In this document: piece after piece, positions 8,727 to 54,219 of the stretch
Layout of the letters: each line of letters opens with the position of its first letter
Numbering within the stretch: the stretch's first letter is position 1
Assembly (NCBI GenBank): GCA_964400745.1
Contig: CAYNVY010000002.1
Location: forward strand, 5,195 to 69,194
Source of the DNA: an uncultured Enterobacteriaceae bacterium
GTDB taxonomy: Bacteria; Pseudomonadota; Gammaproteobacteria; Burkholderiales; SG8-39
Direction: 5' to 3'
DNA: 64,000 bases
The notes under the pieces: generated by a model
The model's input: only the letters and a program-made list of their open reading frames with translations
Databases searched by the model: none
Told to the model about the DNA's origin: nothing
Made by a program: the position numbers and the translations under genes

Positions 8727-8910
8727 ATTGCGTCGCGGGCACTCAGCGCGACTTCGACCGAATACCCCACCGCACTAGAGTTCCTATCCAGATTCAGAAA
8801 AGGGCTGGCAACAACGGCTCAACACAAACATACCCGAGTTCCGATCCGTGGAACCCCTCTAGACTTGGCGGACTTGCCATAAAGCCAGCGAAATGTTGCG
8901 CCGGCAAAGC

Positions 8911-16671: not shown

Positions 16672-16687
16672 CTCAATTCCTCAAAGG

Positions 16688-20294: not shown

Positions 20295-21353
<1,059 letters not shown>

Positions 21354-30811: not shown

Positions 30812-30814
30812 GTT

Positions 30815-31465: not shown

Positions 31466-31529
31466 GACGTCCCTTGTTGTTGATTGATAGTCAGATTTGG
31501 AGTGTTGCCCGAATTCAATGCGGCCTGGA

Positions 31530-32057: not shown

Positions 32058-32164
32058 GAGTTTTCAGTTCCAAAACGACCCGCAGAAATCGGCAATGTAA
32101 CGGCCGGCAAGTCAATAGCACGAAAGGCGAGGCCGGCAACGCTCTGCTTCGCCTGGTCGCAGGT

Positions 32165-33955: not shown

Positions 33956-33965
33956 GTCATGCGAA

Positions 33966-35123: not shown

Positions 35124-36175
35124 GGCAGCTCCGGGTTCCGCACCATGACAATCGCGCGGGGGACCATGCCCACTTCGATGTCCCGTTGCGGCGCCTGCAG
35201 TGGATAGACCTGCCCCAATGTTTCGGCAATCGCCGCTGCCACGACCGGAAAGCCGGCCGCATGCGCCGCAACCACGCTGCCGCTGGGGCGCGGATTCACC
35301 TCGAGTATGCAGGGGCGGCCCTGACCGTCCGTCATCAAATCGATATCGTGGAGCCCATCCAGCCCAATAGCCTCCGCGATGTCCAGGCAATATTTCATGA
35401 TCGCCGGGTCCGACATGATGCGATTGCCCGTAAATGGAATGCCCGTGGGATTGGTGCGCCGGCGTACCAGAGCCGCCTTCGCGCGGCCGCGTATGGCGAA
35501 CACGTCGACGTCGTGCACTGGCGCGTGCAGCAGGGGCATCACCATCAGTACCCCGTCGGCGAACCATGTTTGCATTTCTTCGGCGTCGGGAGTGTCTTCA
35601 ACACGCTTTTCCCGAGCGCCGCCGCCAATCCATGCCGCCGGGACTTCGCCCGTGCCCACCAAAAGGCGCATGCCGCGGCCACCGCGCCCCGCCACCGGCT
35701 TCACGATGACGCTGTGGCGGGGGTAGCCGTATCCGGCCATGGAGGTCTGAAGCTCGTCCAGGCTATCGACGCAGACATGCTCCGGAACCCGCAATCCCGC
35801 CGACTGAAGCGCGCGATAGGTTGCCTGTTTGTCGCGAATCATATCGAGCACTGCGATCGGGCTGGCCAGCACAATAGCGCCGGCAGCAGAAATTGCCGCC
35901 CGATCGGCGGAGAGGCGAAAAGCTTCCTCGTCGGAACTCGGCAGCACAAGATCGATCTTCTCATGCGCAACGATGCGCGCGACCTCATCTACATAGGCAG
36001 GATCCCCGCCCCATGGAACCTGATAGAAGGCATCCACATAGCCACGACCTGCTGCATTGCCGGACGCGTCCACGCCCACAAGGTACGGCCGAAGTATCGG
36101 ATCGCTACGCAGATGAGTAAGCAGGTCCGGCACCATTGTGCCTCCGACGCAGGTGAAAAGTATCCGAGCGTTCAT
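35120..36175 (-). CDS. ATP-grasp ligase (PylC/CarB-like)
   Basis: LPSSDEE, RDKQAT, IVKPVAGRGGRG, LEVNPRPSG. Confidence 0.88.
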   Translation of the reverse strand: MNARILFTCVGGTMVPDLLTHLRSDPILRPYLVGVDASGNAAGRGYVDAFYQVPWGGDPAYVDEVARIVAHEKIDLVLPSSDEEAFRLSADRAAISAAGAIVLASPIAVLDMIRDKQATYRALQSAGLRVPEHVCVDSLDELQTSMAGYGYPRHSVIVKPVAGRGGRGMRLLVGTGEVPAAWIGGGAREKRVEDTPDAEEMQTWFADGVLMVMPLLHAPVHDVDVFAIRGRAKAALVRRRTNPTGIPFTGNRIMSDPAIMKYCLDIAEAIGLDGLHDIDLMTDGQGRPCILEVNPRPSGSVVAAHAAGFPVVAAAIAETLGQVYPLQAPQRDIEVGMVPRAIVMVRNPELP

Positions 36176-37236
36176 GTCATGCCTGCAACGTGGTCCGCAC
36201 GAATAGGCTGGTCGCGGGAGATTGCTTTCAAGGCAGTGTTGCCAAGTACTGCCCCGTATGAAGAAGGCGGGAGACCGAGTTCACCCGGCAGCGGGCGCTT
36301 GAGAGCCACGTTCCCCTCAGAAAACGCCTCTCCTGCCGCAATGTCGCAACGCGCGATGAGACAGCGGTGCCGCTGATCACGCACCGCCTCTTCCGCAGGC
36401 GCCGGCGCGATGCGCCCGTCGCCGAGCATAACCTGCAGGCGTCGTATCTTTCCCACCATGCTCGCAAAATCGGCTGGCTCCATGGAGATGTGGTGATCCG
36501 CACCGGCAAGACTCTTGTCCAGCGTGAAGTGCTTTTCGATGACCGTCGCGCCCAATGCCACTGCTGAGAGGCAGGCGAGATCGTCCAGCGTGTGGTCCGA
36601 GTAGCCGACTGCCACGCCGAACCGGCAACCCAGCGCGGACATGCCGGCAAGATTGACCGTATCGTCGGGCGCCGGGTAAAGCGCAGTGCACTTGAGGACC
36701 GCCAGGCCCGGGGATCCGTTGCAGCGCGCGGTGTCGATCGCCGCCGCGATCTCTTCTTCATACGCCAGACCGGTGGAAATAATCAGCGGCAATCCCTTTC
36801 GCGCCGCGGCAGCGACAAGCGGCAGGTTGGTCATCAAGCCGGAGGACACCTTCACCGCGGGCATCCCCAGGCGGCTCATGCGGTCCAGGCTGACAAAGTC
36901 TCCAGGAGTAGAAAACAGGATAATGTCCAGACGCTTGGCCAAGTCCATCATATCGTGCATGGCGGCGTCATCGAGAGACTTGTCGCGAAATTCGGCATGA
37001 GACACGGTCCCCGCCACGTAGCTTTCCTCAGCGTCCACGGTCTGCAGCTTGACCGCATCGGCTCCGGCCGCGGCGGCAGCTTCTATCATGCGTGCGCACA
37101 GGGCGGCGTCGCCGTGATGATTGACTCCCACCTCGGCGATCACGAATACGGGATGTCCGGGACCGATGCGGCGGTTGCCAATGCCAAAGCTGAGGTTTCC
37201 TGCCGATTTCAGCATATTCTGCGGATCTTCGTTCAT
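36172..37236 (-). CDS. NeuB-family nonulosonic acid synthase (PseI/LegI-like) with SAF domain
   Basis: IAEVGVNHHG, ADAVKLQ, STPGD, GYSDHT, IEKHFTLD, DHHISMEP. Confidence 0.92.
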   Translation of the reverse strand: MNEDPQNMLKSAGNLSFGIGNRRIGPGHPVFVIAEVGVNHHGDAALCARMIEAAAAAGADAVKLQTVDAEESYVAGTVSHAEFRDKSLDDAAMHDMMDLAKRLDIILFSTPGDFVSLDRMSRLGMPAVKVSSGLMTNLPLVAAAARKGLPLIISTGLAYEEEIAAAIDTARCNGSPGLAVLKCTALYPAPDDTVNLAGMSALGCRFGVAVGYSDHTLDDLACLSAVALGATVIEKHFTLDKSLAGADHHISMEPADFASMVGKIRRLQVMLGDGRIAPAPAEEAVRDQRHRCLIARCDIAAGEAFSEGNVALKRPLPGELGLPPSSYGAVLGNTALKAISRDQPIRADHVAGMT

Positions 37237-37280: not shown

Positions 37281-37955
37281 TCACATTATAATCCGGCCGA
37301 GTTCAAACGCTTCCGCCGCGGCAACGCCGACCATGGCGCCACGCCAGCGTGCCAGATGCTCCACGGCTTCGATGGAACGCGGATGCGGAAAAGCGCGCAT
37401 CTCGTCCGCATATATCGATAGCGCCGCCAGTTTTCTCGGCAAGTAGTCCGACACATCGACAAACCAATTCGGCGCAAACGGCGCCATTGACGCGGGCGGG
37501 CGCCACTCGGTACTGGAGGCCGTTTCAAAAAACAGCAGCTGGCGCACCGAGCAACCTGGTTGAGGACGGCACGCCGCTACAACCGCATCGTGAACCCGGC
37601 GATGGTCGATGTTTACGTCATGCCCGTGGTGGGTGTAGACGATGTCCGGCCGGGACCTTTGTACCGCGCGTTCGATGTCCTGGACAGTGTCGAGAAGCGG
37701 GATCGTATCCAGTCGGTTGTCCGGATATGCCATCAACGTCACGTCGATCACCCCCAGTTCGGCGCACGCGCGTCGCGCAGCATCGTGGCGAGCAGCGAGT
37801 TCCCGCTCGCGGTCCGCGGGTTTGCGTGAGCATATCCCATCTGCCAGGAATATGACGGCCGCGCTGCCCCCCTCGGCGCAATGGCGCGCCAGTGTTGCGC
37901 CGCAGCCGAGCACTTCGTCATCGGGATGTGCGGCAACCACCAATACCCTGCTCAT
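37281..37955 (-). CDS. PIG-L/LmbE-family N-deacetylase
   Basis: AAHPDDEVLG, DVNIDH, FETASSTEW, FPHPRS. Confidence 0.92.
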   Translation of the reverse strand: MSRVLVVAAHPDDEVLGCGATLARHCAEGGSAAVIFLADGICSRKPADRERELAARHDAARRACAELGVIDVTLMAYPDNRLDTIPLLDTVQDIERAVQRSRPDIVYTHHGHDVNIDHRRVHDAVVAACRPQPGCSVRQLLFFETASSTEWRPPASMAPFAPNWFVDVSDYLPRKLAALSIYADEMRAFPHPRSIEAVEHLARWRGAMVGVAAAEAFELGRIIM

Positions 37956-38105: not shown

Positions 38106-39266
38106 TCACCGGATCGTCGGCTCGTTCGAACCGCTGCGCTTCGCCCTTGGTTCGGGAATGCGCGACCTTGTAGCAGACCCAGGCGCGGACAACATCGCCG
38201 CACAAACGCGGCTCGCACCGCGCCCGTCAACCGCGGCGAGACAGCGCATCGACCACGCTTTGTCCAGGCCTTCGCACAAAATCTTTCCAATGCCTTCCGC
38301 CAATCCATGATCGTCCACTTCATTGCTATGTCCAAGCCATCGAACCAGGCCATGTCGTCCAAGTTCATCAGCGATCGGTCGCTGATTTTCGGACAGAGTT
38401 ACCACCAAGGCAGGCAGCCCCAAGCATAGACGCTCCCAACTCGTCGCCCCGCCAGCGCCCACCGCCAGATCGGCTTTTTCCATCAGTGGCGCAAGACTGG
38501 GAAGGTCGCAATGCAGATGAATGTTGTTGTGTCCATCAATCAGATTGCCGACTCCCCGAATATGCCGATTGGTCTTGCTCATGACTATGTCGACATCGAT
38601 TTCCGGGCGATTGAGCCGCAACAGCGCGGCTAACACGCGCGTGGTCAGGTTGGCCCTGTCCACACCTCCGAAAAATACCAGGATGCGCCGAATCGGGCCA
38701 CTTCGCGGCACAATGTGTCCGCGCATTTGCGCATACAAAGGCTGCAGCAATGCGTATTTTGGCCCCAATAGCAACGTACAGCCCCCGGGGATCTTACTTG
38801 CATAGCGGGTATGCATTAGCGCCACCAGGTTCTGGTCAAGCAGCAGATCGCACTCATGCGTTCGGTCGGCGAGATCGTCGATCACCATAACTTGCCCGAC
38901 CGCGTGGCACAATTTCTGCTCCCAACGGATATCGAGGGCATAGTGGTCGACTACCAGCCAATCGGGTTCAACGTTCATCGCCCGAATTGCCGCGAGGGTC
39001 TGCTCTGCGTCCTCCTGCCATGAAGCTCTCAGCCATCGGGCGTGCGCGGGCGTTTCGCCGGCTTCTACCGGCACATCAATTTCGGGCAGACGGTTGACGG
39101 CAAACCCTCTTGCCTCAATCAGGTCGCACAGATCGCCGTCATGCTCGCGACAGACAAAGCGCGCCTCCACGCCGCGCTCGCGCAATGCAGCGGCCAGCGT
39201 CAGGCAGCGCATGACGTGCCCGGTCCCAATATGGGATGCCGCGTCCGTGCGTATGACCGCCAGCAC
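38106..39266 (-). CDS. pseG: UDP-2,4-diacetamido-2,4,6-trideoxy-beta-L-altropyranose hydrolase
   Basis: RTDAASHIGTGHVMRCLTLA, VVDHY, IDDLADR, GATSWERLCLGLP, ENQ. Confidence 0.92.
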   Translation of the reverse strand: MLAVIRTDAASHIGTGHVMRCLTLAAALRERGVEARFVCREHDGDLCDLIEARGFAVNRLPEIDVPVEAGETPAHARWLRASWQEDAEQTLAAIRAMNVEPDWLVVDHYALDIRWEQKLCHAVGQVMVIDDLADRTHECDLLLDQNLVALMHTRYASKIPGGCTLLLGPKYALLQPLYAQMRGHIVPRSGPIRRILVFFGGVDRANLTTRVLAALLRLNRPEIDVDIVMSKTNRHIRGVGNLIDGHNNIHLHCDLPSLAPLMEKADLAVGAGGATSWERLCLGLPALVVTLSENQRPIADELGRHGLVRWLGHSNEVDDHGLAEGIGKILCEGLDKAWSMRCLAAVDGRGASRVCAAMLSAPGSATRSRIPEPRAKRSGSNEPTIR

Positions 39267-39269
39267 GAA

Positions 39270-40559
39270 TCAGCGGACCTTGAACAGGGGAACGAGCGGC
39301 TCGCACTGGAGCAGGTCCCGAATTTTGCCGTCTGCAAGAGCGCGGGCGATCAACGGAAATACCTCCCGGTAGCATGCGAGCAATTTCGTTACGTCCTCCT
39401 CGCTATGGGCATAGCTGAGGTTATGTGTGCCCAGCGTATATATGCCCCGGCGGAAGACCTCCTGTATGAACAGCGTCTTGATCTCCCAGTTGGAAAAGGG
39501 GGCTTTCTCGCGAAACTGGAGGAATGACCAGGTCGGGTGACCGCTCAGTCCGATCACGTCCTCGAGCCTATTGTCCTCAATTATGCGGGCAACCCCTTCC
39601 AGAATCTGCTTGCCTCGGGTTCGCAGCGTCTCGATGACCGGCTCACCGCGCAACTTGGTAAGCACGGCTTTGGCCGCGGCAAGGGACAAGGTTTCCCCGC
39701 CGAAAGTGCCGGAGAAGAAAATCTGCTCGACTACGTTCATGTATTCCGATTTGCCTACCAATGCCGACAGGGGATATCCGTTGGCCATGCCTTTCCCGAA
39801 CGTGGCAAGGTCCGGGGTGACACCGAATTCCTGCTGCGCACCGCCGATGGCGTAGCGAAAGCCGGTTATGGTCTCGTCGAACACCAATAACGCGCCGTGC
39901 CCGCGTGCGAGGTCCTGAACCTTCTGCAGGAAGTCATCCTTCGGATACGCTGAATTCATCGGCTCCAATATCACTGCCGCAAACTCGCCGGGATGCGCTT
40001 CGAGCACGCTTTGCAGGGACAGGATGTCGTTGTAAGTGAAACTGTGCGTGAGTTCCTTCACGGCCTTGGGTACGCCGAGATCGCGCGCCGTGCTGCCAAT
40101 ATACCAATCCTGCCATCCGTGGTAACCGCATACCGCGACGCGGTCCCTGCCCGTGCAGGCCCGGGCAACCCGTATCGCCCCGGAGGTCGCATCCGTGCCG
40201 TTTTTGGCGAAGCGGACCTTCTCCGCGCAAGGTATCATCTCGACCAGCAGTTCCGCCACCTCCGTCTCCAGCCGGTGCGGCAGCGAAAATGTTACGCCGC
40301 ATTCCATCTGCTTTCGTACGGCCGCGTCCACGTCCGGATCGCAATAGCCCAGGGTGACGCACGCCAGGCCGTTGACAAAATCGAGATATTCATTGCCATC
40401 CACGTCCCACATGCGGCTGCCCTTTGCACGCTCGACGAAGTAGGGCGACACCCCGAACGGCAGCGCGGTCTTGCTCTTGCTGAAAGTCTGCGAGCCGAGC
40501 GGAATCGATTTGAGGGCTCGCTCGAGAAGTGCTTCAGATTTACTGTAACGTTCGGACAT
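39270..40559 (-). CDS. Class III aminotransferase (GSA-aminomutase-like, glycan-locus type)
   Basis: PLGSQTFSKS, DVDGNEYLD, GYHGWQDW, FDETITGFR, TFGKGMANG. Confidence 0.9.
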   Translation of the reverse strand: MSERYSKSEALLERALKSIPLGSQTFSKSKTALPFGVSPYFVERAKGSRMWDVDGNEYLDFVNGLACVTLGYCDPDVDAAVRKQMECGVTFSLPHRLETEVAELLVEMIPCAEKVRFAKNGTDATSGAIRVARACTGRDRVAVCGYHGWQDWYIGSTARDLGVPKAVKELTHSFTYNDILSLQSVLEAHPGEFAAVILEPMNSAYPKDDFLQKVQDLARGHGALLVFDETITGFRYAIGGAQQEFGVTPDLATFGKGMANGYPLSALVGKSEYMNVVEQIFFSGTFGGETLSLAAAKAVLTKLRGEPVIETLRTRGKQILEGVARIIEDNRLEDVIGLSGHPTWSFLQFREKAPFSNWEIKTLFIQEVFRRGIYTLGTHNLSYAHSEEDVTKLLACYREVFPLIARALADGKIRDLLQCEPLVPLFKVR

Positions 40560-41338
40560 TATTTTTTCTCCGCAAGGAATGCAGCATCTGCAAGTAGGGA
40601 CTTCCTGGTGCCCTCGTTGCGCTGAAAGCGCGCATTGAATTGTTTCAACTCGGGTGATTCCCGCAACAATGCCAGCACATCATCTGTCGTGAAATCCGGC
40701 TTGCCCGGATACAATCGTTCGTAAACCAGACGCACGAACTCGAAATCCTCCGGCTCGTCCACTGTCCAGCGCAGGGACGAGAGGTCCTCGCTGCGAACAT
40801 GATTGCCGACACGAAACCGGTCTGGCTGCTTGCGAATGAACGGCGTAACGTGTTCGCGCTGCGATGGCAGAATTGCCTCGGTCCAGGCCGACTTCAGGCA
40901 GGCGAACCGGGTAACCTCGACATCGAGCCCGTCCGGGTAGGTGGGCGGAGCGCAATTGGACAGGTAGTCGAGGTCCGAGGCCAAAAACCTGCCCACAATC
41001 TCGTCGATCAGTGACGGATCCGCCAATGGACAGTCTCCGGTCAGCCGGACTACGACATCCGGCGCGTAGGGCAATGCCGCCTGGAAAAAGCGGTCCAGGA
41101 CATCGTTCAGGCTGCCGCGAAAGCAATCCACTCCGGCATCGCGACATAGGTCAAACAGAGCGTCGTCGGAGGGATCGATGCTGGTAGCCACGACTAGGCG
41201 TTCAAGGCTGGTGCATCTCGCCAATCGCTCAAGCTGATACTCCAGCATGGGACGCCCGAGGATCGGCATCATCACTTTTCCCGGCAGTCGCGACGATGAC
41301 GTGCGGGCCTGCAGTATGGCTAGTACCCCCATGGTCAT
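40559..41338 (-). CDS. SpsF-like cytidylyltransferase (CMP-ulosonate synthetase fold)
   Basis: ILQARTSSSRLPGKV, GSLNDVLDRF, RLTGDCP, REHVT, RWTVDEPED. Confidence 0.88.
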   Translation of the reverse strand: MTMGVLAILQARTSSSRLPGKVMMPILGRPMLEYQLERLARCTSLERLVVATSIDPSDDALFDLCRDAGVDCFRGSLNDVLDRFFQAALPYAPDVVVRLTGDCPLADPSLIDEIVGRFLASDLDYLSNCAPPTYPDGLDVEVTRFACLKSAWTEAILPSQREHVTPFIRKQPDRFRVGNHVRSEDLSSLRWTVDEPEDFEFVRLVYERLYPGKPDFTTDDVLALLRESPELKQFNARFQRNEGTRKSLLADAAFLAEKK

Positions 41339-41922
41339 TTGGCACCCTCCTGCTGCGACGCATCATTGGCAATGCCGTTTCGCCGCATCCAATCTTCGCG
41401 CCGCAGCATCGCGATGACATTGTCGACATAGCGACCCCGGTCCCAAATCAATCCTTCCAGGCGTCCCACCTCCTTGAACCGGAACATATCATGGATAGTC
41501 TTGGAAGCGTCGTTGCTGGCTGCAAATGTGCTCTTGATGATGCGCATGTTGAGCCTCAAAAAGGCCACACGAAGGAGCAACGACACCGCCTCGACAACGT
41601 GTGGCCCCTTGCGATATTCCTTGTCGCCGATGACGATGGCGAGGTCGCAATAGCGATGCACCCAGCTGATCGCACTCAGATTGCACACGCCTATGTGCTT
41701 GTCCGTCGCCACGTCGACAATGGATAGAACCATCCGGTCCCTGTCCCTCTTGCACGATTCATAGAACTCCAGTTGCCCTTCTACGCTGTTGGGCCAATAA
41801 CGTTGCGCTAGCCAACGGCTGGTTTCCTCATCGCTCAGCCACTCGTGCCAAGGCCCCTCCGCATCCGCCCTGGTGGGATGACGCAGGTACACATTGGTGC
41901 CGATCATGTACGGGTTGATCAT
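41335..41922 (-). CDS. RimJ/RimL-type GNAT N-acyltransferase (PseH-like)
   Basis: KHIGVCNL, IVIGDKEYRKG, AFLRLNMR, FKEVGRL. Overlaps the ACP gene by ATGA. Confidence 0.8.
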   Translation of the reverse strand: MINPYMIGTNVYLRHPTRADAEGPWHEWLSDEETSRWLAQRYWPNSVEGQLEFYESCKRDRDRMVLSIVDVATDKHIGVCNLSAISWVHRYCDLAIVIGDKEYRKGPHVVEAVSLLLRVAFLRLNMRIIKSTFAASNDASKTIHDMFRFKEVGRLEGLIWDRGRYVDNVIAMLRREDWMRRNGIANDASQQEGAK

Positions 41923-42155
41923 GCCTTACCTCGGCGTTTGGCTTCGATTCGGGCCATGAGCCCACGCACGTCCTTGATCGATACGATATCTTCGTCGTTG
42001 AATTCGACTCCGAGCGACTCCTCTACCGCCAGAATCAGTTTCATGTGGCGCAGGGAGTCCCATTTCGCCAGAGTAGCCGGGGTTGACTCTTCGCTCACCG
42101 ATTCAACCGGTACGCCCATGATGCTCGCAACAATCTCAAACACATTCTTGCTCAT
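41919..42155 (-). CDS. Acyl carrier protein
   Basis: 78 aa, acidic, WDSLRHM phosphopantetheine-Ser motif, GGAGAG RBS. Confidence 0.92.
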   Translation of the reverse strand: MSKNVFEIVASIMGVPVESVSEESTPATLAKWDSLRHMKLILAVEESLGVEFNDEDIVSIKDVRGLMARIEAKRRGKA

Positions 42156-42380
42156 TCAATTCTCTCCATGTATTTCACCTTCTAATCCCGCTTGCCGCGC
42201 AGGATCGGCAGCGCGAGATCGGAAGACTGCAGGGTAGGCTCACGACTAACAAACGACTCGCAGAATCGGAGGCTCGAATGCAGGTGCTGGTGACAATTGC
42301 CAAGTCCCGCAACGACCGACGAAGTACGGTGCCAGCGACAACAAGGACCCCTGACAATTTAGCACTGCCGCAGAGTAAGC

Positions 42381-43064
42381 TTAGGACTCCTCTGGCTTGT
42401 AAATTTTGAGCAAATACTTCTTGCCATCAACGAAAAAGAAAGATGGCCAATGCTCATTATTTCCGATGCGCAACATATTGAACTGCTCGCGGATTGTTTT
42501 GTCGATATTTAGCTCCCCGTCCTTTGGCGTCCGCCTCCAATAGAAACTTTCGACGCCGGACTGCCTAGTTCTCGTAAAGTTCGGAAAGCAGTCCAAAAAC
42601 TCGGATATTGCGGCAAACGTAGCCTCGACTTGGGCCGCGCGTATTTCGTCATAAAGTTCATATCCCGAGAGAGTAAAAGAGGACTTGAATAGAATGTCAC
42701 CGGAGTCGACTTGCTCACCGGCCTCCAATAAGCAGATTGGAATCTCCTTCTTCCCCTCCAGTATCTGCCACTGTACCGGCGCGAAACCCTTTCCCAGTGG
42801 CAGATCGCTCTCGTGTATTACGACGTTCAGGTGATTCCTGCTCAAGAAGCTCTTGTCAAGAATTCTTGTGTAGCCAAGTATGAAGACAATATCCTGATTG
42901 GAAACCGCGGAATAATCGTGGGAAATTGTAAAGCGGAATGTCTGGTCGCTGACAAATGCCTTTGACTGCAGTAAGTGACCCTCAATCCAGTTGTTTGCTC
43001 GATCGAGAAGGAACGTCACCAGATAGGGCGTTGCGCGCGGCGTACGGGAGAAGTTGCTTGGCAT
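42381..43064 (-). CDS. Formyltransferase-family protein
   Basis: VVIHESDLPLGKGFAP, VDSGDI, FNMLRI. Start at the ATG at 43064. Confidence 0.82.
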   Translation of the reverse strand: MPSNFSRTPRATPYLVTFLLDRANNWIEGHLLQSKAFVSDQTFRFTISHDYSAVSNQDIVFILGYTRILDKSFLSRNHLNVVIHESDLPLGKGFAPVQWQILEGKKEIPICLLEAGEQVDSGDILFKSSFTLSGYELYDEIRAAQVEATFAAISEFLDCFPNFTRTRQSGVESFYWRRTPKDGELNIDKTIREQFNMLRIGNNEHWPSFFFVDGKKYLLKIYKPEES

Positions 43065-43150
43065 GGTTTCTGATGTGGGTGTTTCGGTTTGGCGGACTGC
43101 GCACTTCAAGCGGGCCGAAATGCACGCTATAAGCTTTTCCGGGAACCCTC

Positions 43151-43909
43151 TTACTGTCCGCGAGGCGTCAATACCTCGACCGTCAATAGCCGCTTTACGC
43201 CCTCGCGCCCGGTCAACTCCATGAGACGCGAACATAGAACGGCGATCGACTGCGGCAGCCACCCTGACAGTCGTGGGTGGGGAATATCGTGAATTTTGAA
43301 AAACAGACCCGGGCACAGCCGCTTTACGTCCTCCAGGATGGCGGAAAGGGATTGTGGATTATTCCAGGCCTGGTAAATCACGATAAGGCCGGCTTCATTC
43401 AACTGGTCAGCGAAATACCGGATAAACGACGCCTGTGCCGGCGCGTCCGCGTTCCTGGTAAACGGGTAGAACTCAAAGCAGAATATCAGATCGAACCGGC
43501 CAAGGGGCCCGGCATCTGGAGATATCGCCTCCGCCTTGAATTCCGCGGCCGGATATCTGGCGCTGGCGTACGCTACCGCGTCAGCTGAAATGTCTATCCC
43601 GAGCACCTTGGCGTCCTTGAAGCATTGCGCCAGTGCAACGGTCGTAAATCCAAGCCCGCATCCCGCGTCCAGGATGTTTCCTGCCTTGTTCAGTCCGAGA
43701 TTCAGTCCAAGAGATCGAACGATCGTCTGCACCTTGCGCAGGGGCTGCACGTCATTGTGGTTGGCGATCATCGTACGTTCTGGATCGTCACCCAGGAGCA
43801 TGCGCCGGTAGGAACCGAAATCGCTCTTTGGATCGAGTGCGGTAACTTCGTTTATCGAACGAATCTTTTCTTCGTCTTCCTTAAGCTGCTTCGGATGCCA
43901 CCATTCCAT
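43151..43909 (-). CDS. Class I SAM-dependent methyltransferase
   Basis: ILDAGCGLG, GIDIS, FDLIFC. Confidence 0.82.
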   Translation of the reverse strand: MEWWHPKQLKEDEEKIRSINEVTALDPKSDFGSYRRMLLGDDPERTMIANHNDVQPLRKVQTIVRSLGLNLGLNKAGNILDAGCGLGFTTVALAQCFKDAKVLGIDISADAVAYASARYPAAEFKAEAISPDAGPLGRFDLIFCFEFYPFTRNADAPAQASFIRYFADQLNEAGLIVIYQAWNNPQSLSAILEDVKRLCPGLFFKIHDIPHPRLSGWLPQSIAVLCSRLMELTGREGVKRLLTVEVLTPRGQ

Positions 43910-43989
43910 TGCGAATCCCTGTAATTTGCGCAGTCGATGCTTTGTGCCAGAGCTGCGGCGCCCGGCCGCGATAGCCAGTCAGGTTCGAG

Positions 43990-45786
43990 TCAATCGTCTA
44001 GCGGAGAACGCACTTCGGCAAATCCCCCCCCACCCGGGGCCGGCACCTGTTTTAGATCCAGCACAAACCAATCGCCTTCCCCCGCCTTGCGAGGTGTTGG
44101 CACGAACCCCTGGCCTGCATAGAACTCCTCCACCTGGCTATTCTTGGCCGTGGGAATGTACTGACCCAGTATGCGCTGAGTTCCACGCCGGCGGGCCAAA
44201 TGCATCGCTTCGGCAAGAAACCGGCCTTCTATGCCCCGCCCCAAGGCACGGCACGAAAGCAGCAGCGTATCGACGACCGCCTCGTCGCCCTGGTAGCGAA
44301 TCACGCAAGTCCCGACGATACCCATGTCGCCGAACTTGTCAGCCACCCTCAGCCAAAGGACTTCGTGGTCCGGCGATTCTGAGAAGCTTCGAATGTCGGC
44401 GTCCGAATAGCGCCGCGACGTGAGATTGAACTGGTTGGTCTTCTGGGTCTGCTGCGCTATGCGCGGTATGCTCATCGCATCGGCGCGGCCGATGTGCAGC
44501 TTCATCTCCAGTGAGCGGCAATAGCTCTCAAGATCCGAACACTTGGCCCGCTCGCGCTGGCGCCCGCTTTCGGCCTGATACAACGCGCCGCGCTTTCGAT
44601 CCTCATCCGTAATGCGCGGGAGATCGAAAGCGCCGCAGGCCGCCAATATCCAGCGATAGTCGGACGGGCGCGCAGGGGGCAGTTGCAGCACCTGAACCTC
44701 CGGCACCATGCTCCGGGCGAGATCGGCCTCGAAGGGGCTGTCGTCCGCGAAGACAAGGCTGTCGATGCCGATATTCAATTCCGCGGCGATGTCGCGCAGA
44801 TTGCCCGCTTTGTCCCGCCAATTGATGCGCCAGGCCGCTATGTGCTCCGGCTTGAGCACCATGTCCGGGTGCCGCTCGAACACTTCCATCACGTCCGCCT
44901 CGTTGTTCTTGCTGCATATGGCCAGGATGACTCCGCGGCGATGCAAGGACAAGACCTCGCGCTGGAACTCGACAAACGCGGAACCGGGATGGCCGCTTCC
45001 GAGCTTGATCCCTTCCAGCCCGTCCTCGCCCACAATGCCGCCCCAAAGCGTATTGTCGCAATCAAGCACGAGACATTTACGCGCCCTTCCCTTCAAGGCC
45101 CGCAGGTACTTGAAATCTTCCCTGGCGATTTCTGCCAGGGCCAGGCGCGAGTAGGGCGACCGGGCGAGCTGCCAATAACGCAAATCGTAGAACTGGCGCG
45201 CCCCAATGCGGGCCAGGCATGTCTCCATGCTCACCAGATAGGCGTTATCAACAGAGGACAGGGCCAGCCGCAGCCCCTCGTTCAACCTGGCCACCACAGC
45301 CAATTGCCCGCATGCCAGTTGTGCGTCCTGAATCCCCATTGCGGGATACAGCGGCGCCTCCAGGCCGTGCCAGAGGATCATGGCATTGGACTGTTTCCGA
45401 ATGCCGCGGACTACGGTCCCGAACAAGGCGACCAGCCTGGCCACTTCCTCCTCCACCTGCGCCGGGGAAAGGGCGGAAAAGCCGGTATCCAACAAGGTGC
45501 TCAGGGCCGGAAGCGGCGCAAACACGAGTGCTGCGTCCAGATCGCGGTGCAGCAACTCCGGCGCCCCGCCCAATGCCTCCTGCACGAGGTTATCGAATCC
45601 GCCGAAGGCGACATCCGCACGAAACCCAAGCTCATAGGCCATGTACTGGAGATAGCCCTGGATCGATTCCATCGTTACGTTGCGCAGTACGGCCAGGCGC
45701 ATGCGCGGGAGATCGCCGATCTCCGGCGCGGACAGACGATCCTCAATTTCGGCCAGTGTCGGCAGCGGCGGTTCGATGTAGAGCAT
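43990..45786 (-). CDS. FkbH-like glyceryl-ACP synthase (HAD-IIIC)
   Basis: KCLVLDCDNTLWGG, SKNNE, FADDSPFE, KTNQFNLT, LLSCRALGR. Confidence 0.93.
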   Translation of the reverse strand: MLYIEPPLPTLAEIEDRLSAPEIGDLPRMRLAVLRNVTMESIQGYLQYMAYELGFRADVAFGGFDNLVQEALGGAPELLHRDLDAALVFAPLPALSTLLDTGFSALSPAQVEEEVARLVALFGTVVRGIRKQSNAMILWHGLEAPLYPAMGIQDAQLACGQLAVVARLNEGLRLALSSVDNAYLVSMETCLARIGARQFYDLRYWQLARSPYSRLALAEIAREDFKYLRALKGRARKCLVLDCDNTLWGGIVGEDGLEGIKLGSGHPGSAFVEFQREVLSLHRRGVILAICSKNNEADVMEVFERHPDMVLKPEHIAAWRINWRDKAGNLRDIAAELNIGIDSLVFADDSPFEADLARSMVPEVQVLQLPPARPSDYRWILAACGAFDLPRITDEDRKRGALYQAESGRQRERAKCSDLESYCRSLEMKLHIGRADAMSIPRIAQQTQKTNQFNLTSRRYSDADIRSFSESPDHEVLWLRVADKFGDMGIVGTCVIRYQGDEAVVDTLLLSCRALGRGIEGRFLAEAMHLARRRGTQRILGQYIPTAKNSQVEEFYAGQGFVPTPRKAGEGDWFVLDLKQVPAPGGGGFAEVRSPLDD

Positions 45787-45837
45787 ATTAGGGAATGGTC
45801 GGTCAGAAAGTTGGATAGGGGAACGCTTGTTCGAAAT

Positions 45838-47295
45838 CTACCCGGCCTGGACTGCTGCGAATCCGTTGAGCAGATTCAGCATGACCGGAAGCGAGTCCTG
45901 GTTGCGAACCGGCAGCAGGCTCGCGGTCTGGTCGGTCGCGAGCCTCGGCAAGCGCGGATTGGCAATCCGTAGGCCGGGATTGCGCCGGACCAGAGCGTGG
46001 CAGAGCACTTCGCCGGCCGCCTTGGCGGCACAATATTCGATCATATCGGATGGCAGTTCGTCTAAGGCCACCGTCGACGGACAAAACGCGCCTTCGAGCC
46101 CCACGGAACTCAAGTGTTCCACCAATTGCGCGAAGCCGCTGACATAGTAATCGCAGAAGCGGTCGAACAATTCGGCAGAGAACCGGGAGCGCGTCCCGAC
46201 AAAAATTGGGGGCGTCGCAAAATAGTACAAGTGGGTCGGCCACCACCCGTCGGGAAGCGCGCTTTCAGGGACAAGCGGCGCACGAACATCCAGTGCGACC
46301 GCGCGCGCCTTGCCGCCGTGTGAAAGAATTTCGGCAACCACTGCCTCGGCTTCGCTGCGCCCCCGGTGATAGGTGAGGCAGACGTCCGCCCCACCGGCGG
46401 CCAACACCTTCGCCGTGAGTTCCCCCAAGCCCCTTGAACCGCCCACCACCAACGCGCGCTGAGTGCAAAACGCAGTCCGCGAGACGACTCGTGTTGCCAA
46501 TTCCTGCATCGACGCCTGCCGGGTTGGCGGCGGACGCAGGAAAGCACGCACGGTCCCGGAAAGACCCGCGCCCTCCACCCCCACCGTGAGGAGGCCGAAG
46601 CGACGATCGAAGCGAAGGACGCGATAGCTCACGCGGCTCGGCGCTTCGCCCGTCCGGTGCGGTATTTGCGCCAGTTCAAGCTCGGAATACAGCGAATACA
46701 GACCGGGACATTCCATGCCGACGAGCCGGCTGGTGTTTGCAAGCAGAATCGGCAAGCCTTCGCCGCACAGGTCGACGAGCGCTGGAAAAAGCCGTGCTGC
46801 ATGGCCGGTTTCGACCGGCATCACCCATCCGCCCGACCTGCCCTCCAATTCGTCCATCCCGAGTTCGATCGGCGTAGCGGAAGCAGGCGTGCCGGCCACG
46901 GCAGGCAAAGCGCGGACGGGCGCATCGTTTCCTGGCACAAATTCGACCAGCATTGCATCCCCTCCCGGAACCGTGACCTCTAGCCGAACCTTGCCGGATG
47001 CGTCAACGCCACGATCGCGACAGATCGCTGGCTCCCCAATCAAGATTGGGCGCGTGAACTCGACATGCAGGCTTGCGACGCTGCTGGCGCCGCCGCGCTT
47101 TCCGGCCCAGCATTCCAGCGCCCAGAGAAGGGTGTGAACGCCGTGCACGACCAGTTCGCCGGCAGGACAGCGACGGGCGTGCAGCGGATCGACGTGCAGG
47201 GGATTGCGGTCGCCGGAAAAGTCGGCGAATGCCAATTGATCTTCCAGCGAGAACATACGCTCGCCTAGAATCGGCAGCATTGCTTCAGGTGCCAT
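45838..47295 (-). CDS. MaoC-type dehydratase fused to an SDR ketoreductase
   Basis: FADFSGDRNPLHVD and VVHGVH (hot-dog fold), then ALVVGGSRGLG and YCAAK. Confidence 0.88.
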   Translation of the reverse strand: MAPEAMLPILGERMFSLEDQLAFADFSGDRNPLHVDPLHARRCPAGELVVHGVHTLLWALECWAGKRGGASSVASLHVEFTRPILIGEPAICRDRGVDASGKVRLEVTVPGGDAMLVEFVPGNDAPVRALPAVAGTPASATPIELGMDELEGRSGGWVMPVETGHAARLFPALVDLCGEGLPILLANTSRLVGMECPGLYSLYSELELAQIPHRTGEAPSRVSYRVLRFDRRFGLLTVGVEGAGLSGTVRAFLRPPPTRQASMQELATRVVSRTAFCTQRALVVGGSRGLGELTAKVLAAGGADVCLTYHRGRSEAEAVVAEILSHGGKARAVALDVRAPLVPESALPDGWWPTHLYYFATPPIFVGTRSRFSAELFDRFCDYYVSGFAQLVEHLSSVGLEGAFCPSTVALDELPSDMIEYCAAKAAGEVLCHALVRRNPGLRIANPRLPRLATDQTASLLPVRNQDSLPVMLNLLNGFAAVQAG

Positions 47296-47304: not shown

Positions 47305-48210
47305 TCATTTTTTCCATCGGGCGGGATTGACATACACCTCGTCGTCGACTGCAAACTGCCGCAGACGCTCCATGGCGCCAGGCGGCAAGGGCGAATCCGC
47401 GGTGGCGAGGATTTCCTCCCACTGGCGCACCTGTTCGCAACCTACGATGATCCTATCGGCGTCGGCGCAATGCAGACTGAACCCGAGCGCAGCCTGCAGA
47501 GGCGGTACGCCCAATTCCTGGTATGCAGTCCAAAGGCGCGCATGGTGGGCGCGCAATGCGCGGAAATGCTCAGGGAGGCGCTCCGGAGGCATGAGCAGCA
47601 CCCCCTGCAGGAATGCGCTGCGCAAATGCACTTCGACCCCCCGCGACTTGGCGACGCAGGACAGCCCGCTTGTGACGTAGCGCTGGTCGTATATGTTGTA
47701 GGGAACCTGGACCAGATCGAGTTGATACCGAGCCAGCAATTCGGCAAACTCTGCCGGCCGGTAGAGGGAACACCCGATCTTCTCAACCATGCCTTCCGCG
47801 CGCAACTCCTGGAGGCGCTTCCACAACGCGTTGCCGGCAGGCCCCAGCAGATCATCCGCATGATGCACCAGAAGGCCATATACCGCCGTACCGCCAAGCG
47901 TCGACAGCGAAGCGCGAAACGCCTCTTCCACCAGGTCCGCGGACTCGGCGGGGGTTTTGTCCGTGCCCTTGAGCGGTCGGGTCTTAGTCACCACCTTGAA
48001 CCCGGCGGCAACGGCGCGGTGCTCGCCGAGCGCGCGTTCCGCGTCACCGTACGCCCATGCGGTATCCAGCGTTGTCACGCCGGATTCCCGCGCCCTTTTC
48101 AGTATGGCTGACACGTCCGCCGCCGGCGCGACGCCGCTTTGATTTGCGATCCCGTAGCTCATGCCCCACTGGACCGTGCCCAGCCCCAGGCGCTGCGCGG
48201 CGCTCAGCAC
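47305..48210 (-). CDS. Aldo/keto reductase
   Basis: LGLGTVQWG, DTAWAYG, VVTK, LLVH, RSAFLQG. Confidence 0.9.
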   Translation of the reverse strand: MLSAAQRLGLGTVQWGMSYGIANQSGVAPAADVSAILKRARESGVTTLDTAWAYGDAERALGEHRAVAAGFKVVTKTRPLKGTDKTPAESADLVEEAFRASLSTLGGTAVYGLLVHHADDLLGPAGNALWKRLQELRAEGMVEKIGCSLYRPAEFAELLARYQLDLVQVPYNIYDQRYVTSGLSCVAKSRGVEVHLRSAFLQGVLLMPPERLPEHFRALRAHHARLWTAYQELGVPPLQAALGFSLHCADADRIIVGCEQVRQWEEILATADSPLPPGAMERLRQFAVDDEVYVNPARWKK

Positions 48211-49352
48211 CCGAGAGCCCGCGAAAGCACGGACACCACGTAGTCCTGGTCGTCGCCGGACAGCCGCGGGTGCAAGGGAAGGGTGATGGCTTGGTTACCG
48301 TGGCGCTCCGCTTCTGGAAAACTCCCCTCCACGCGGCCGGGGAGACGGTAATAGGGCTGCAGATGAACCGGCGTGTAATGCACGTTGACCAGGATGTCTT
48401 CGGCGCGCATCGCTTCGAACACGGCCCGCCGGTTCTCCTCGACGTGGACGACATACAGATGCCAAGCCGAGACATTGCCATTGGCCAATTGCGGCCTCCT
48501 TATCGGCAATGCTGCCAGAAGCGCGTCATAGCGCCGCGCCAGTTCCTGACGGCGCGCCAAGTAGCCGTCGAGACGCTGCAACTGGCTCAGGCCCAGGGCG
48601 GCGTGGATGTCCGACAATCGATAGTTGAATCCAAGCATTTGCTGCTCGTAGTACCACTGCGGCGCCGAAACGCCCTGATGGAGCAGCTTCGGGTCGCGGG
48701 TGATGCCATGAGCCCGCAGCATCAGCATGCGCTGGGCCAGCATGGCATCGTTGGTCAGGGCCATGCCGCCCTCGGCCGTGGTGATGATCTTTACCGGATG
48801 AAAGCTGAAAACGGTGATGTCCGACCAGCGGCAGCTGCCGACGGGCTCGCCATTTCTTGACGCGCCGATGGCGTGCGAGGCGTCTTCCAGGACCTTGAAG
48901 CCGAATTCCCGGGCAAGATCCCATATCGCTTCCTGGTCGGTGGGCTGGCCGGCAAAATGCACCGGCACCAGGACCTTGGGCAGGCTGTGTTCCCGTCGGG
49001 CGCGAACCAGTTTTTCCTTCAGGCAAGGCACGCTCAAATTCATGCTTGCCGGATCGATATCGACAAAGTCCACATCCGCGCCGCAATAGCGGCCGCAATT
49101 GGCCGACGCCACGAACGTATTGGGTACGGTCCAAAGGCGGTCGCCGGGCCCCAAGTCCAGCGCCAGGCAGGCGATGTGCAGCGCCGAGGTTGCGCTGTTG
49201 ACCGCCACCGCATGATGCGCGCCCACACGCGCGCGCACGGCCTGTTCGAATTCACCAATCGTGGGCCCTTGCGTAAGATTTTCCGAACACAGCACCTTTA
49301 CCACTGCGTCGATATCGCTCTGGGTGATGTCCTGCCGGCCGTAAGGGATCAT
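48204..49352 (-). CDS. pseC: UDP-4-amino-4,6-dideoxy-N-acetyl-beta-L-altrosamine transaminase
   Basis: MIPYGRQ, LTQGP, NSATSALH, EDASHAIG, FSFHPVKIITTAEGG, WYYEQQMLGFNYR. Confidence 0.95.
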   Translation of the reverse strand: MIPYGRQDITQSDIDAVVKVLCSENLTQGPTIGEFEQAVRARVGAHHAVAVNSATSALHIACLALDLGPGDRLWTVPNTFVASANCGRYCGADVDFVDIDPASMNLSVPCLKEKLVRARREHSLPKVLVPVHFAGQPTDQEAIWDLAREFGFKVLEDASHAIGASRNGEPVGSCRWSDITVFSFHPVKIITTAEGGMALTNDAMLAQRMLMLRAHGITRDPKLLHQGVSAPQWYYEQQMLGFNYRLSDIHAALGLSQLQRLDGYLARRQELARRYDALLAALPIRRPQLANGNVSAWHLYVVHVEENRRAVFEAMRAEDILVNVHYTPVHLQPYYRLPGRVEGSFPEAERHGNQAITLPLHPRLSGDDQDYVVSVLSRALGC

Positions 49353-49476: not shown

Positions 49477-50670
49477 TCACGCCCGTCCGGCCGCCGCCCC
49501 GGCGATCAATTGCTCGAGGAAGACGTGGGTGGGGTTCTCGTCGTCGTTGTTGATGACATAGGGCACCATCTCCCTGGTCTTGGCTGCGTAAGACTCGTCG
49601 CTGAGTGCGAGTATTTTCATTACGCGCCCGGCAAAGGCTTCGTAACTGTCTTCCTTAAGACTCCAGATTCCGTCGACGCAGAAATCCCACAGCGGATTGC
49701 CGGAGAAATTGCAGAACAGCGCCCTGTCGCCCCGGCTCAGACCTTCGCGCAATGCCGTGGACACCATGGCAAGCGAGAGACGGCTTCTCGAAATCAGTCC
49801 GTAGGTCGTGAACTGCTCGCGAACCCGAGGGGTAATGCGCACGTCATTCCCGATGTACTTTTCGTACCAAATCAACTCCGCATCAAGGGAGTGAATGTCG
49901 GCCCGATTCTCCTGCGGGGTAGCGTCCCGTTTGCCCGCGATGACCAGCCTCAAGCCCCGTTCTCGGGCTAGACGCACCGCGTATTGCGCAATCCGGCCGA
50001 CCGCATCCTCGAATCCGGGATATCTCAGATCCCAACCCGGCGAAGCCTCCGCTACCACGCACAGGTCATAGTCGAAGCGTTCGCTTTTGAACGCCTGCGC
50101 CGCCGCCCGAAAGCGGCGAAAGTAGGCTTCTCTCAATGAGCCAACGGGATAGAAGCGCTCCACATGCGCTCCCCTGCCCAGGTAAAGTTCCTTTTCGTAT
50201 TTGCCAAAACACGCGTACTCCGGAATGAAGATGCGCCTGGCGGCAGCCTCCGTCAGTTCGAGCACATCGTAGCGTGCGGCGTTCTGGATCGCCAGATAGC
50301 GCCTGCGGCGATGATCCGCGCGGGCCATATCGTGGAACAGTTCGGAGTTGTCGATATAGGTGATCACGATGCGCGGCGCGAACTGTCGGACCAGAGCCAC
50401 AAAATAAGCCGTCCGAAATGGCGTGCCCCGCAAGAGCAACAGGAACCACTGAAGAATGACGCTCCAGGAAAGGCGCAGCCTGGTCATGGTCACTTCCAGC
50501 GGCGCCACTCTGGCACTACCGCAAAGAGGCAGAATATAGTCGATATTGGCCAATTCGAAGATGACGACATCAACCGGCTTCATGGCGCCCCATTGAACCT
50601 CGAGAGCGCGTGCCCATAGTGAGATCCGCTCCAGGCGGCGCAACAGTTTCCCCCGCATCGCCGCGTTCAC
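49477..50670 (-). CDS. Surface-carbohydrate biosynthesis protein, candidate GT-B ulosonate transferase
   Basis: ITYIDNS, AIQNAAR, ACFG, PVGSLR, STALREG. GTGA overlap; position within the NeuB block. Function inferred. Confidence 0.5.
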   Translation of the reverse strand: MNAAMRGKLLRRLERISLWARALEVQWGAMKPVDVVIFELANIDYILPLCGSARVAPLEVTMTRLRLSWSVILQWFLLLLRGTPFRTAYFVALVRQFAPRIVITYIDNSELFHDMARADHRRRRYLAIQNAARYDVLELTEAAARRIFIPEYACFGKYEKELYLGRGAHVERFYPVGSLREAYFRRFRAAAQAFKSERFDYDLCVVAEASPGWDLRYPGFEDAVGRIAQYAVRLARERGLRLVIAGKRDATPQENRADIHSLDAELIWYEKYIGNDVRITPRVREQFTTYGLISRSRLSLAMVSTALREGLSRGDRALFCNFSGNPLWDFCVDGIWSLKEDSYEAFAGRVMKILALSDESYAAKTREMVPYVINNDDENPTHVFLEQLIAGAAAGRA

Positions 50671-51500
50671 CAAACCGAGCGTCCGCCATCCATCACGACG
50701 TTCTGTCCGTTCATGTAGGATGACGCGCCGGAGCAAAGGAATTGGATCGCCGCCCGGTATTCGTCCCGCGTCGCCATCCGGCCAAGCGGAATCAATGCGC
50801 TGAGGCGTTGGACAAACGCCTCCCCCTGGCCATTGAATACACCGCCCGGTGACAGCGCATTGGCACGCACGTTCTTGTCAGCCCAATATGTGGCGAGGTA
50901 GCGTGTCAACCCTACCAAGCCCGCTTTGATTACTGAGTACGTTACGGGTTTTACTGGCTGCAGTTCGTCCGGAAGTCCGTCTTTTCTATACAGCCGCTGA
51001 TCCGGCGAAAAGACCGAAAGGTCCGAGGCGATATTCAGGATCACCCCACCTTTTCCATCCCTCGCCATAGCCGCGCCAAAAACCTGGCTGCACAAGAATG
51101 CCCCGGTCAGCCCGACTGCAATCTGCAAATCCCATTGTTCCAGGGGGAAGTTTTCGAGCCGGGAGGTTTCCAGGACGCCTTCATCACCCTTGACTTTCGG
51201 GTCGATTGCGGCGTTGTTGACCAAAACGTCGATACGAGTACCGACGAACCATAACGATTCGGCAACGGTGCGTATCGCGGCGAGCCGGGTCACGTCCATA
51301 ACCCGGGTGACTATCTTTTCCCGAGCGAAGTCTGACGCCAGCGCATTCCGGGCTGTTTCCAGCGCGGGCTCGGAAAGATCTGTCAGAACCACGGTCGCGC
51401 CGCTTTCCAGCAGAGCGGCAGCGTGCTCCAACCCGAGCAAACCTGCGGCTCCTGTAATGAGCGCGGTCTTTCCGCTTAGATCGAATTTCTTGGATGCCAT
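50667..51500 (-). CDS. SDR-family oxidoreductase (PtmA-like)
   Basis: TGAAGLLG, NNAAIDP, YSVIK, NALSPGG. Confidence 0.9.
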   Translation of the reverse strand: MASKKFDLSGKTALITGAAGLLGLEHAAALLESGATVVLTDLSEPALETARNALASDFAREKIVTRVMDVTRLAAIRTVAESLWFVGTRIDVLVNNAAIDPKVKGDEGVLETSRLENFPLEQWDLQIAVGLTGAFLCSQVFGAAMARDGKGGVILNIASDLSVFSPDQRLYRKDGLPDELQPVKPVTYSVIKAGLVGLTRYLATYWADKNVRANALSPGGVFNGQGEAFVQRLSALIPLGRMATRDEYRAAIQFLCSGASSYMNGQNVVMDGGRSVW

Positions 51501-51530
51501 TGCGTATTGCCTCGATTTGACGGGCTTGTC

Positions 51531-52286
51531 TCAGGACCGGACCTGGCCGCCGTCAAGCGTCCAGATGCCGCCGGTTGCGAAGCCGGCGCGGGAGGATGCC
51601 AAATAGACCGCCAGACTGGCTACTTCGTCCGGCGTTCCCAATCTCGACAAGGAAACGTCGCGCTCCAACATTTCGTGAACCATTTTTTCATTCTCGTACA
51701 GCTTTCGCGACCAGACGGAGCCGTCAAACAAGATGTTTCCGGGCGCGATTGCGTTGATTCGCACGCCGAGCCTGCCGAGGGGGCGGGCAATGCCACGCAC
51801 GTATGCGTTAAGGGCAGCCTTGGCACTCGAATATGTCACTGGGGCGCCCGGAATGACTTCAAGCCCGCAAATGGACGACACGCAGACTATTGCGCCCTTG
51901 CTCGCCGCAAGCGCCTCACGTGCCGCTTCAACCGTGTTTGTGGTGCTCCAAAGGTTCAGGGCGAACACCCGCTGCCACTCCTCCGGCGATTCCTCACCGG
52001 GAGGCACCGACCGACCGCTGCCTACGTTGCAGACGAGAATATCCAGCCGTCCCAATGACTTGATCGCCTCCGCGACGATTCGTCGCGCCTCCTCCGGGCG
52101 CGTGACATCCCCCGCCACGGACAGGGCACCGGGGAGGGCCGCTGCCGCCGCGGCAACGGCATCTGCGGTTCGGCCATTGAGTGCCACCTTGCATCCCTCG
52201 GCATGCAATGCTTTCGCGATGGCATGCCCGATTCCTTTGGAGGAACCCGTGACAAGCGCAGTTTTACCGGAGAGTCCAAGCAACAT
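51531..52286 (-). CDS. SDR-family oxidoreductase
   Basis: TGSSKGIG, YSSAK, NAIAPG, DGG. Confidence 0.9.
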   Translation of the reverse strand: MLLGLSGKTALVTGSSKGIGHAIAKALHAEGCKVALNGRTADAVAAAAAALPGALSVAGDVTRPEEARRIVAEAIKSLGRLDILVCNVGSGRSVPPGEESPEEWQRVFALNLWSTTNTVEAAREALAASKGAIVCVSSICGLEVIPGAPVTYSSAKAALNAYVRGIARPLGRLGVRINAIAPGNILFDGSVWSRKLYENEKMVHEMLERDVSLSRLGTPDEVASLAVYLASSRAGFATGGIWTLDGGQVRS

Positions 52287-52381
52287 GTTCGATGTCGGTA
52301 CTTTTTCGATCAATGACTCGGGTCAAACACAGGTGCTGGCATGCCAGCGTGATGCACGCTGCTGATTGCTCATCCCCGCCC

Positions 52382-54207: not shown

Positions 54208-54219
54208 CGGGAGGCACCC

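Follow-up and report, generated by a model that had tools for sequence, protein, structure and literature searches.

What is a starter module of polyketide type doing in the middle of a nonulosonic acid operon? This question is raised by a 64,000-nt stretch of contig CAYNVY010000002.1 (the window), in which four minus-strand genes between pseC and pseG encode an FkbH-type glyceryl loader, a dehydratase–ketoreductase fusion (DH-KR), an acyl carrier protein (ACP) and a GNAT acyltransferase. The analysis, in which genes were called with Pfam and NCBIfam cut-offs, confirmed that this four-gene module is intact. It works like the lactyl-starter module of a polyketide synthase (PKS) without being a PKS. 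We tentatively propose, with slightly less than even confidence, that the GNAT would place a lactyl group on a pseudaminic-acid-type sugar, at an amine other than the one installed by PseC.

The pseC-to-pseG block is part of a long surface-polysaccharide cluster. Read along the minus strand from 49352 to 35120, the gene order is pseC, aldo-keto reductase (AKR), DH-KR, FkbH, methyltransferase, formyltransferase-like gene, ACP, GNAT, SpsF, class-III aminotransferase, pseG, PIG-L, NeuB-family synthase and ATP-grasp ligase, each an open reading frame. The initial annotation had placed an intact FkbH, the DH-KR, an ACP overlapping the GNAT, a methyltransferase and a formyltransferase-like gene between pseC and pseG; all are there, together with the AKR, SpsF and aminotransferase genes that it had left out. 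It had also noted the lack of a ketosynthase, and a ketosynthase query returned zero matches in the 64 kb window, though PKS controls matched. The ACP stop codon overlaps the GNAT start by 4 bases, and the GNAT and SpsF genes likewise share 4 bases. Two phosphopantetheinyl transferase matches were found elsewhere in the genome. Two other views of the block were rejected: that it is a PKS remnant, given the missing ketosynthase, the intact catalytic residues and the conserved synteny, and that the seven named genes make up a single unit.

FkbH (43990–45786) belongs to the HAD-IIIC type and passes the TIGR01686 cut-off (295 bits versus 146.65). Its D242-C-D-N-T, K293, D348-D349 and S511-C-R motifs line up with the FkbH domains of PKSs, so that the TIGR01686 domain is combined with the HAD DxDxT, Lys and DD motifs and the C-terminal Cys (SCR) of a loader. 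Judging by its family, the protein would load glycerate from 1,3-bisphosphoglycerate onto the ACP. The DH-KR (45838–47295; Pfam MaoC and adh_short) is a MaoC double-hotdog dehydratase fused to an SDR ketoreductase. Its predicted structure (pLDDT 93) resembles FabG-type SDRs and MaoC dehydratases, and the residues D29/N31/H34 (MaoC D-x-N-x-x-H), GGSRGLG, S407, Y421 and K425 are conserved without change in all 53 aligned rows.

A plasmid search with the DH-KR gave 134 matching records, 8 of which span at least 80% of the query. Among them, the N-terminus of a 4928-aa PKS on plasmid p1 of Burkholderia sp. FERM BP-3421 is 28% identical over 503 columns (E 1e-24, profile E 6e-53); the next domain of that PKS is an FkbH, 34% identical to that of the window. 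Another match, 30% identical over 484 columns, is a free-standing SDR that lies close to ACP and FkbH genes in a PKS locus of Streptomyces griseofuscus. We take these two plasmid loci, whose records carry generic names only, to be the FR901464/spliceostatin and lankacidin clusters. Both share with the window a full-length DH-KR and conserved catalytic residues; they differ in that the window genes are free-standing, lack a ketosynthase, sit in a nonulosonic-acid operon and are predicted to serve a sugar amine through the GNAT. DH-KR proteins turn glyceryl-ACP into lactyl-ACP in FR901464/lankacidin-type pathways (review PMC4765723). Because the DH-KR is a full-length homologue (28–30%) of such starter dehydratase–ketoreductases, lactyl-ACP is the likely product of FkbH, DH-KR and ACP, and lactyl is the probable group transferred. 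That both the DH-KR and FkbH have homologues in PKS starter units supports the lactyl-ACP route that the initial annotation had put forward. In a quick tree, the window DH-KR belongs to a group of 8, every member of which is linked either to the GNAT clade described below or to an AKR; four other GNAT-linked rows form part of the neighboring group. The DH-KR of one glycan-like locus (L093:2-1342, G165) groups with PKS-linked DH-KRs in the same tree, a join made unsure by long branches.

The dedicated ACP (41919–42155; PF00550) carries the motif W-D-S-L, whose D-S-L part is invariant in 39 aligned rows. The GNAT (41335–41922; PF13302) had been called PseH-like, which holds for the fold, of RimL/SpeG/PseH type with a TM score of 0.75 to 4ri1, comparable to its SpeG matches; it does not hold for the profile, since the protein reaches 29 bits against the TIGR03585 cut-off of 93.1. 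Relatives numbered 174 among 271 candidates, and the best 120 are 50–97% identical to the window protein. Desulfohalovibrio reitneri encodes a relative with 64% identity (WP_029896954.1). The consensus coenzyme A (CoA) P-loop of GNATs is Q/R-x-x-G-x-G/A (PMC4964394). Not one of the 119 listed homologues shows this loop or retains Gly at the fourth position, where 76 carry Pro instead. The motif is kept in an ACP-less relative (L102) and in a PseG-fused GNAT of genome G931 (see below), and a further relative (L103) has R-G-K-G. When the best 150 representatives at 50% identity were scored with a looser pattern, the top 18 all lacked the canonical loop; ranks 19–70 comprised 24 canonical, 26 non-canonical and 2 unscorable sequences, and ranks 71–150 comprised 55, 22 and 3, respectively. 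A 62-row tree contains a clade of 22 rows with zero canonical loops (FastTree support 0.92).

Linkage to the carrier was also assessed by matching longest contigs of identical length: nine of the 119 GNAT homologues matched a DH-KR homologue and nine an ACP homologue (17 distinct), including 12 of the closest 20, while jittered controls gave 0.4–0.5 expected and at most 4. We regard this matching as an indirect sign of linkage to ACP and DH-KR. The degenerate CoA loop and the co-occurrence with ACP together point to the ACP as the likely acyl donor of the GNAT, in line with the donor first proposed for it, and we hold transfer from ACP to a sugar amine to be quite probable. Among more distant relatives, 3 of 21 long proteins scanned are fused to cytidylyltransferases, and those of L102 and L103 have genes for an oxidoreductase and for a second aminotransferase in their neighborhood.

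The acceptor is approached best through G931, a Pseudomonadota metagenome-assembled genome and the only one to yield a further GNAT-clade locus in surveys of phylum samples of 401 and 301 genomes and of 151, 161 and 161 further genomes; the remaining matches in the 401- and 301-genome phylum samples are 28–33% identical outgroup members. Its locus (L003) reads pseB-pseC-AKR-DH-KR-FkbH-ACP-GNAT-SpsF-aminotransferase-pseG at 52–78% identity to the window, the GNAT being 77% identical. Both genomes have the module inserted between AKR and SpsF. The AKR (47305–48210; PF00248), the SpsF-type cytidylyltransferase (40559–41338; PF02348, below the PseF cut-off) and the class-III, GSA-aminomutase-like aminotransferase (39270–40559; PF00202, PRK06209-like) form a trio of their own: four more close aminotransferases were found in 251 genomes of the order, and all 4 of the loci fetched for them hold the three genes together, with no DH-KR or window-type GNAT in the stretches read. 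Since the module is inserted in a conserved trio, the amine that receives the acyl group is more likely to be a newly introduced one.

The Kdo8N aminotransferase is reportedly also of class III. EpaA, a cytidylyltransferase fused to an aldo-keto reductase, epimerizes C8 of pseudaminic acid (Pse) with the reductase EpaB (PMC12053666), and ElaABC is proposed to act likewise on legionaminic acid (PMC13656337). These Acinetobacter baumannii systems, which give 8-epi-Pse and 8-epi-legionaminic acid, resemble the window in coupling a cytidylyltransferase to an oxidoreductase at C8, and EpaA combines the two Pfam domains that SpsF and AKR carry separately in the window, a likeness at the level of domains; in the window, by contrast, the partner is an aminotransferase instead of a reductase. 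No EpaA match was found in a phage collection. Flexibacter maritimus has an 8-amino nonulosonic acid (PMC3210612), and the accessible part of a Tenacibaculum O-antigen paper links no gene to the 8-amino sugar.

The slot of PseH provides a second line of argument. PseC (48204–49352; TIGR03588, 516 bits versus 423.5), PseG (38106–39266; TIGR03590, 297 bits versus 153.55) and PseB (pseB at 20295–21302, minus strand) pass their cut-offs, as expected for the CMP-pseudaminic acid pathway PseB/C/H/G/I/F, whereas a formyltransferase, a divergent synthase and SpsF stand where PseH, PseI and PseF would; the canonical Pse5Ac7Ac set, in which these three do not pass, is thus incomplete. The synthase (36172–37236; NeuB family) scores below the PseI and NeuB cut-offs alike, and its G931 orthologue is 78% identical. 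pseB lies 27 kb away from pseC in the window and adjoins it in G931, L121, L122 and L129. The window PseG has no fused acyltransferase domain, no decayed PseH domain follows its gene and no trace of a fused GNAT was found in the genome. In G931, PseG carries a fused PseH-like GNAT domain with a canonical loop, beside the module; a PseG–PseH fusion in L121 is 38% identical over its length to this protein.

The window formyltransferase-like protein (42381–43064; PF00551, ATG start), a predicted PseH replacement, has V-I-H in place of N-x-H, as the initial annotation had read it; the His and the Asp-Ser-Gly-Asp are present and the Asn is replaced. Its gene has the lowest GC (0.48) of 31 measured. 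Relatives were found in 2 of 5 genomes searched, each time in the PseH slot: L122 (10619–12295) encodes a PseG fused to a V-x-H formyltransferase 42% identical to the window protein, and L129 has the order pseB-pseC-pseG-formyltransferase-pseI, with a 35% identical formyltransferase at 8110–8754. If active, a V-x-H formyltransferase fused to or following PseG would mark N7-formyl pseudaminic acid. In the simplest reading, the amine made by PseC is acylated in the window by the formyltransferase and in G931 by PseH, so that a different amine is left for the ACP-linked GNAT; the proposal that the GNAT acts on the PseC product finds no support in these loci and is probably wrong. The methyltransferase (43151–43909; S-adenosylmethionine-dependent, Pfam) and the formyltransferase are both missing from the G931 module and are accessory to it, so that O-methyl-lactyl, one of the groups initially considered, is not a core feature.

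Taken together, the pathway may run as follows. FkbH would load glycerate onto the ACP, as its family and motifs indicate; the MaoC domain would dehydrate glyceryl-ACP to pyruvoyl-ACP and the SDR domain reduce it to lactyl-ACP, as homology and the catalytic residues suggest. PseB and PseC would give the 4-amino sugar, which the formyltransferase, going by synteny, would acylate in place of PseH to set an N7-formyl group; PseG and the synthase would yield the nine-carbon sugar and SpsF would activate it. By analogy with EpaA, the AKR may then oxidize and the class-III aminotransferase aminate it, probably at C8, and the GNAT would finally move lactyl from the ACP onto the new amine. C8 is accordingly our leading, still tentative, acceptor site; N5 appears rather unlikely, N7 unlikely, and any other position very unlikely.

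N5 enters the comparison through the PIG-L de-N-acetylase (37281–37955; PF02585), which could free this rival acceptor amine. It follows pseG in both module genomes, the G931 copy being 75% identical and in the same place. An ATP-grasp ligase (35120–36175; PF15632), a candidate third amide-forming system, lies close behind PIG-L in both, with 32% identity between window and G931; this arrangement leads us to assign, at moderate odds, the ATP-grasp ligase to N5 and the GNAT to C8. In the window, the ligase is followed by a LeuA-like synthase (33966–36175, minus strand, for the pair), and in G931 by a 2-hydroxyacid dehydrogenase, a difference that suggests an interchangeable acyl group. The fullest form of the proposal would be an operon for a 5,7,8-triamino nonulosonic acid with three different N-acyl groups, of which formyl would derive from folate, lactyl would be delivered by a private carrier protein and the third would be attached by the ATP-grasp ligase, and in which the GNAT represents a new ACP-dependent clade of sugar N-acyltransferases without CoA binding and the cassette is a widespread glycan lactyl donor, possibly the source of polyketide lactyl starters. 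As a whole, this picture is doubtful.

Several observations weigh against our proposal. The DH-KR is only 28–30% identical to those of PKSs, which form a separate long-branch group, and its substrate or stereochemistry may therefore differ. H. pylori PseH has an atypical loop yet binds acetyl-CoA (PMC4964394), so the loop does not by itself exclude CoA use, and 22 of 77 scorable distant representatives (ranks 71–150) are likewise non-canonical. The whole gene order was read in just two genomes, those of the window and G931, to which a 2.7 kb fragment (L011) can be added. The formyltransferase is without the usual catalytic Asn, and with no PseH above cut-off in the genome (88% complete), the GNAT would be the remaining N7 candidate if that enzyme were inactive. 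PIG-L, present in both module genomes and not seen in L121–L124 (two of them cut by contig ends), favors N5, and the C8 chemistry of the trio is itself predicted by analogy.

Three other explanations were considered. The same route from ACP to GNAT could deliver a different three-carbon group, such as glyceroyl, 2-O-methyl-lactyl (via the inserted methyltransferase), pyruvoyl or alanyl. Precedents exist in the N-glyceroyl Pse of Tannerella forsythia (at N7; PMC5378307) and the N5-di-O-methylglyceroyl Pse of C. jejuni 11168 (PMC3068675), whose flagellin glycosylation locus holds the fkbH-domain gene cj1302 (PMC7099621). These sugars are like the predicted one in their three-carbon N-acyl group and unlike it in bearing glyceroyl, not lactyl, and the accessible texts assign them no ACP route or transferase. 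The window methyltransferase does stand between FkbH and ACP, and non-matching methyltransferases adjoin the DH-KR in L004 and L021. Against this explanation, both DH-KR active sites are invariant in the 53 aligned rows, the G931 module does without a methyltransferase, and the aminotransferase occurs without a DH-KR in 4 of 4 relatives, which argues against a dedicated pyruvoyl-ACP transaminase. We consider this explanation unlikely.

The two remaining explanations change the role of the GNAT, and each appears quite improbable. In one, it takes the place of PseH and transfers lactyl to the 4-amino sugar made by PseC to give N7-lactyl pseudaminic acid, while the formyltransferase acts elsewhere. 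The position of the module after pseC-AKR, the unfused window PseG with no PseH passing the cut-off in the genome, the resemblance of the GNAT fold to PseH among others, and a divergent synthase, as a bulkier hexose substrate might need, are all compatible with it; G931, however, has the closely related GNAT as well as its own PseG-fused PseH-like domain, and formyltransferase relatives occupy the PseH slot in both carriers. In the other, the GNAT is an ordinary acetyl-CoA acetyltransferase for a sugar amine, while the ACP delivers its cargo to a different enzyme or product. Its closest solved structures are indeed the acetyl-CoA enzymes SpeG and PseH, atypical loops can still bind CoA, and elsewhere the FkbH/DH-KR/ACP core uses other transferases (MBOAT in 8 of 33 loci). 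Against this stand the overlap of the ACP and GNAT genes, a pair kept in G931, the clade-wide loss of the loop, which tracks the ACP, and the lack of any MBOAT, FabH, acyltransferase-3 or hexapeptide call in the window genes scanned.

To place the module more broadly, DH-KR relatives were collected: 2434 proteins matched at E ≤0.001 among 7996 scored, the best 120 being near full length with at least 40% identity. The neighborhood was assessed in 33 loci with a full-length DH-KR, excluding the PKS loci L008, L009 and L087, the window itself and four duplicate or near-duplicate fetches; L007, L025, L032 and L033 were dropped by a coverage filter, and many contigs are short. FkbH was found near the DH-KR in 25 of the 33 (16 of 19 where at least 9 kb was available), ACP in 17, MBOAT in 8, the window GNAT clade in 1 and ketosynthase in 0. 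Genes for WcbI, FabH-like, AAC(3), acyltransferase-3 and hexapeptide proteins (Pfam) adjoin individual copies. The FkbH/DH-KR/ACP core is a portable cassette of glycan loci, often paired with MBOAT. The eight MBOAT-linked loci (L005, L020, L023, L029, L035, L099, L101 and L104), seven of which also have FkbH, are candidate polysaccharide O-lactylation systems; they share loader, fusion and carrier with the window, but in place of the soluble GNAT they use a membrane acyltransferase, likely for O-acylation outside the cytoplasm. No characterization of such cassettes was found in the literature. Within the class, the DH-KR occurs in 2 other genomes of 400 scored, within the family in 2 of 150 and within the genus in 0 of 8. 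No GNAT-clade members were found in viral contigs and only distant GNATs in plasmids, and the plasmid search with the methyltransferase and formyltransferase gave no matches. A flagellar locus (L123:16381-19067) holds an FkbH-ACP-AAC(3)-family transferase group as well as AKR, SpsF and a class-III aminotransferase; without a DH-KR in the stretch read, the group is possibly a glyceroyl donor.

Structures have shown that sialic-acid-like sugars of bacteria can bear three-carbon N-acyl groups, to which the literature examined assigns no route. In C. jejuni, C5 deacetylation was proposed to precede glyceroylation (PMC3068675); in T. forsythia, with its N7-glyceroyl sugar, PseH acetylated in vitro, and the available text names no glyceroyl route (PMC5378307). 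No description of a route from lactyl-ACP to a nonulosonic acid was found, a search that left subscription journals mostly outside its scope and so does not prove absence; it is also missing from the accessible parts of PMC4875605 (on ACPs in flagellin glycosylation islands), PMC4402001, PMC7685785, PMC9796276, PMC13317340, PMC3849452 and PMC2279256. What the locus adds is the physical joining of module and amination trio, the P-loop signature and the PseH-slot argument; the latter two would allow acyl groups to be predicted during annotation from the genes present. The chemistry is borrowed from a characterized polyketide pathway, which limits the surprise. As the proteins are small and soluble, carrier loading, acyl identity, the GNAT donor and the acceptor amine are directly testable in vitro.

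Further features of the region were recorded. Around the inserted genes, no promoter-like sites were found and terminator signals were not above chance; a 17-base direct repeat (94%) inside the methyltransferase gene (43188–43204 and 43317–43333) is probably due to chance. A second ulosonic-acid block at 50667–59552 (minus strand) encodes a nucleotidyltransferase, an HddA-like kinase, a NeuB fused to a TIM-barrel domain, GmhA, a second SpsF, a class-IV aminotransferase, a TIM-barrel protein and two SDRs; it is conserved at 57–86% in G931, with a carbamoyltransferase between the SDRs there. G931 also carries two RmlD-like genes of equal start and length (L108:13732-14652 and 16457-17377), an apparent recent duplication. 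Leptospira O-antigen-type genes occupy 29561–34000 and 49477–50736 of the window (minus strand; the LIC12162 family passes its cut-off, LA_1612 is weak), together with genes for an APS kinase, a methyltransferase and a sulfotransferase, a set that suggests a sulfated glycan. Finally, at 3895–8726 (minus strand), YjbH and a PAP2 domain share a single frame beside YjbF, these being group 4 capsule export genes.

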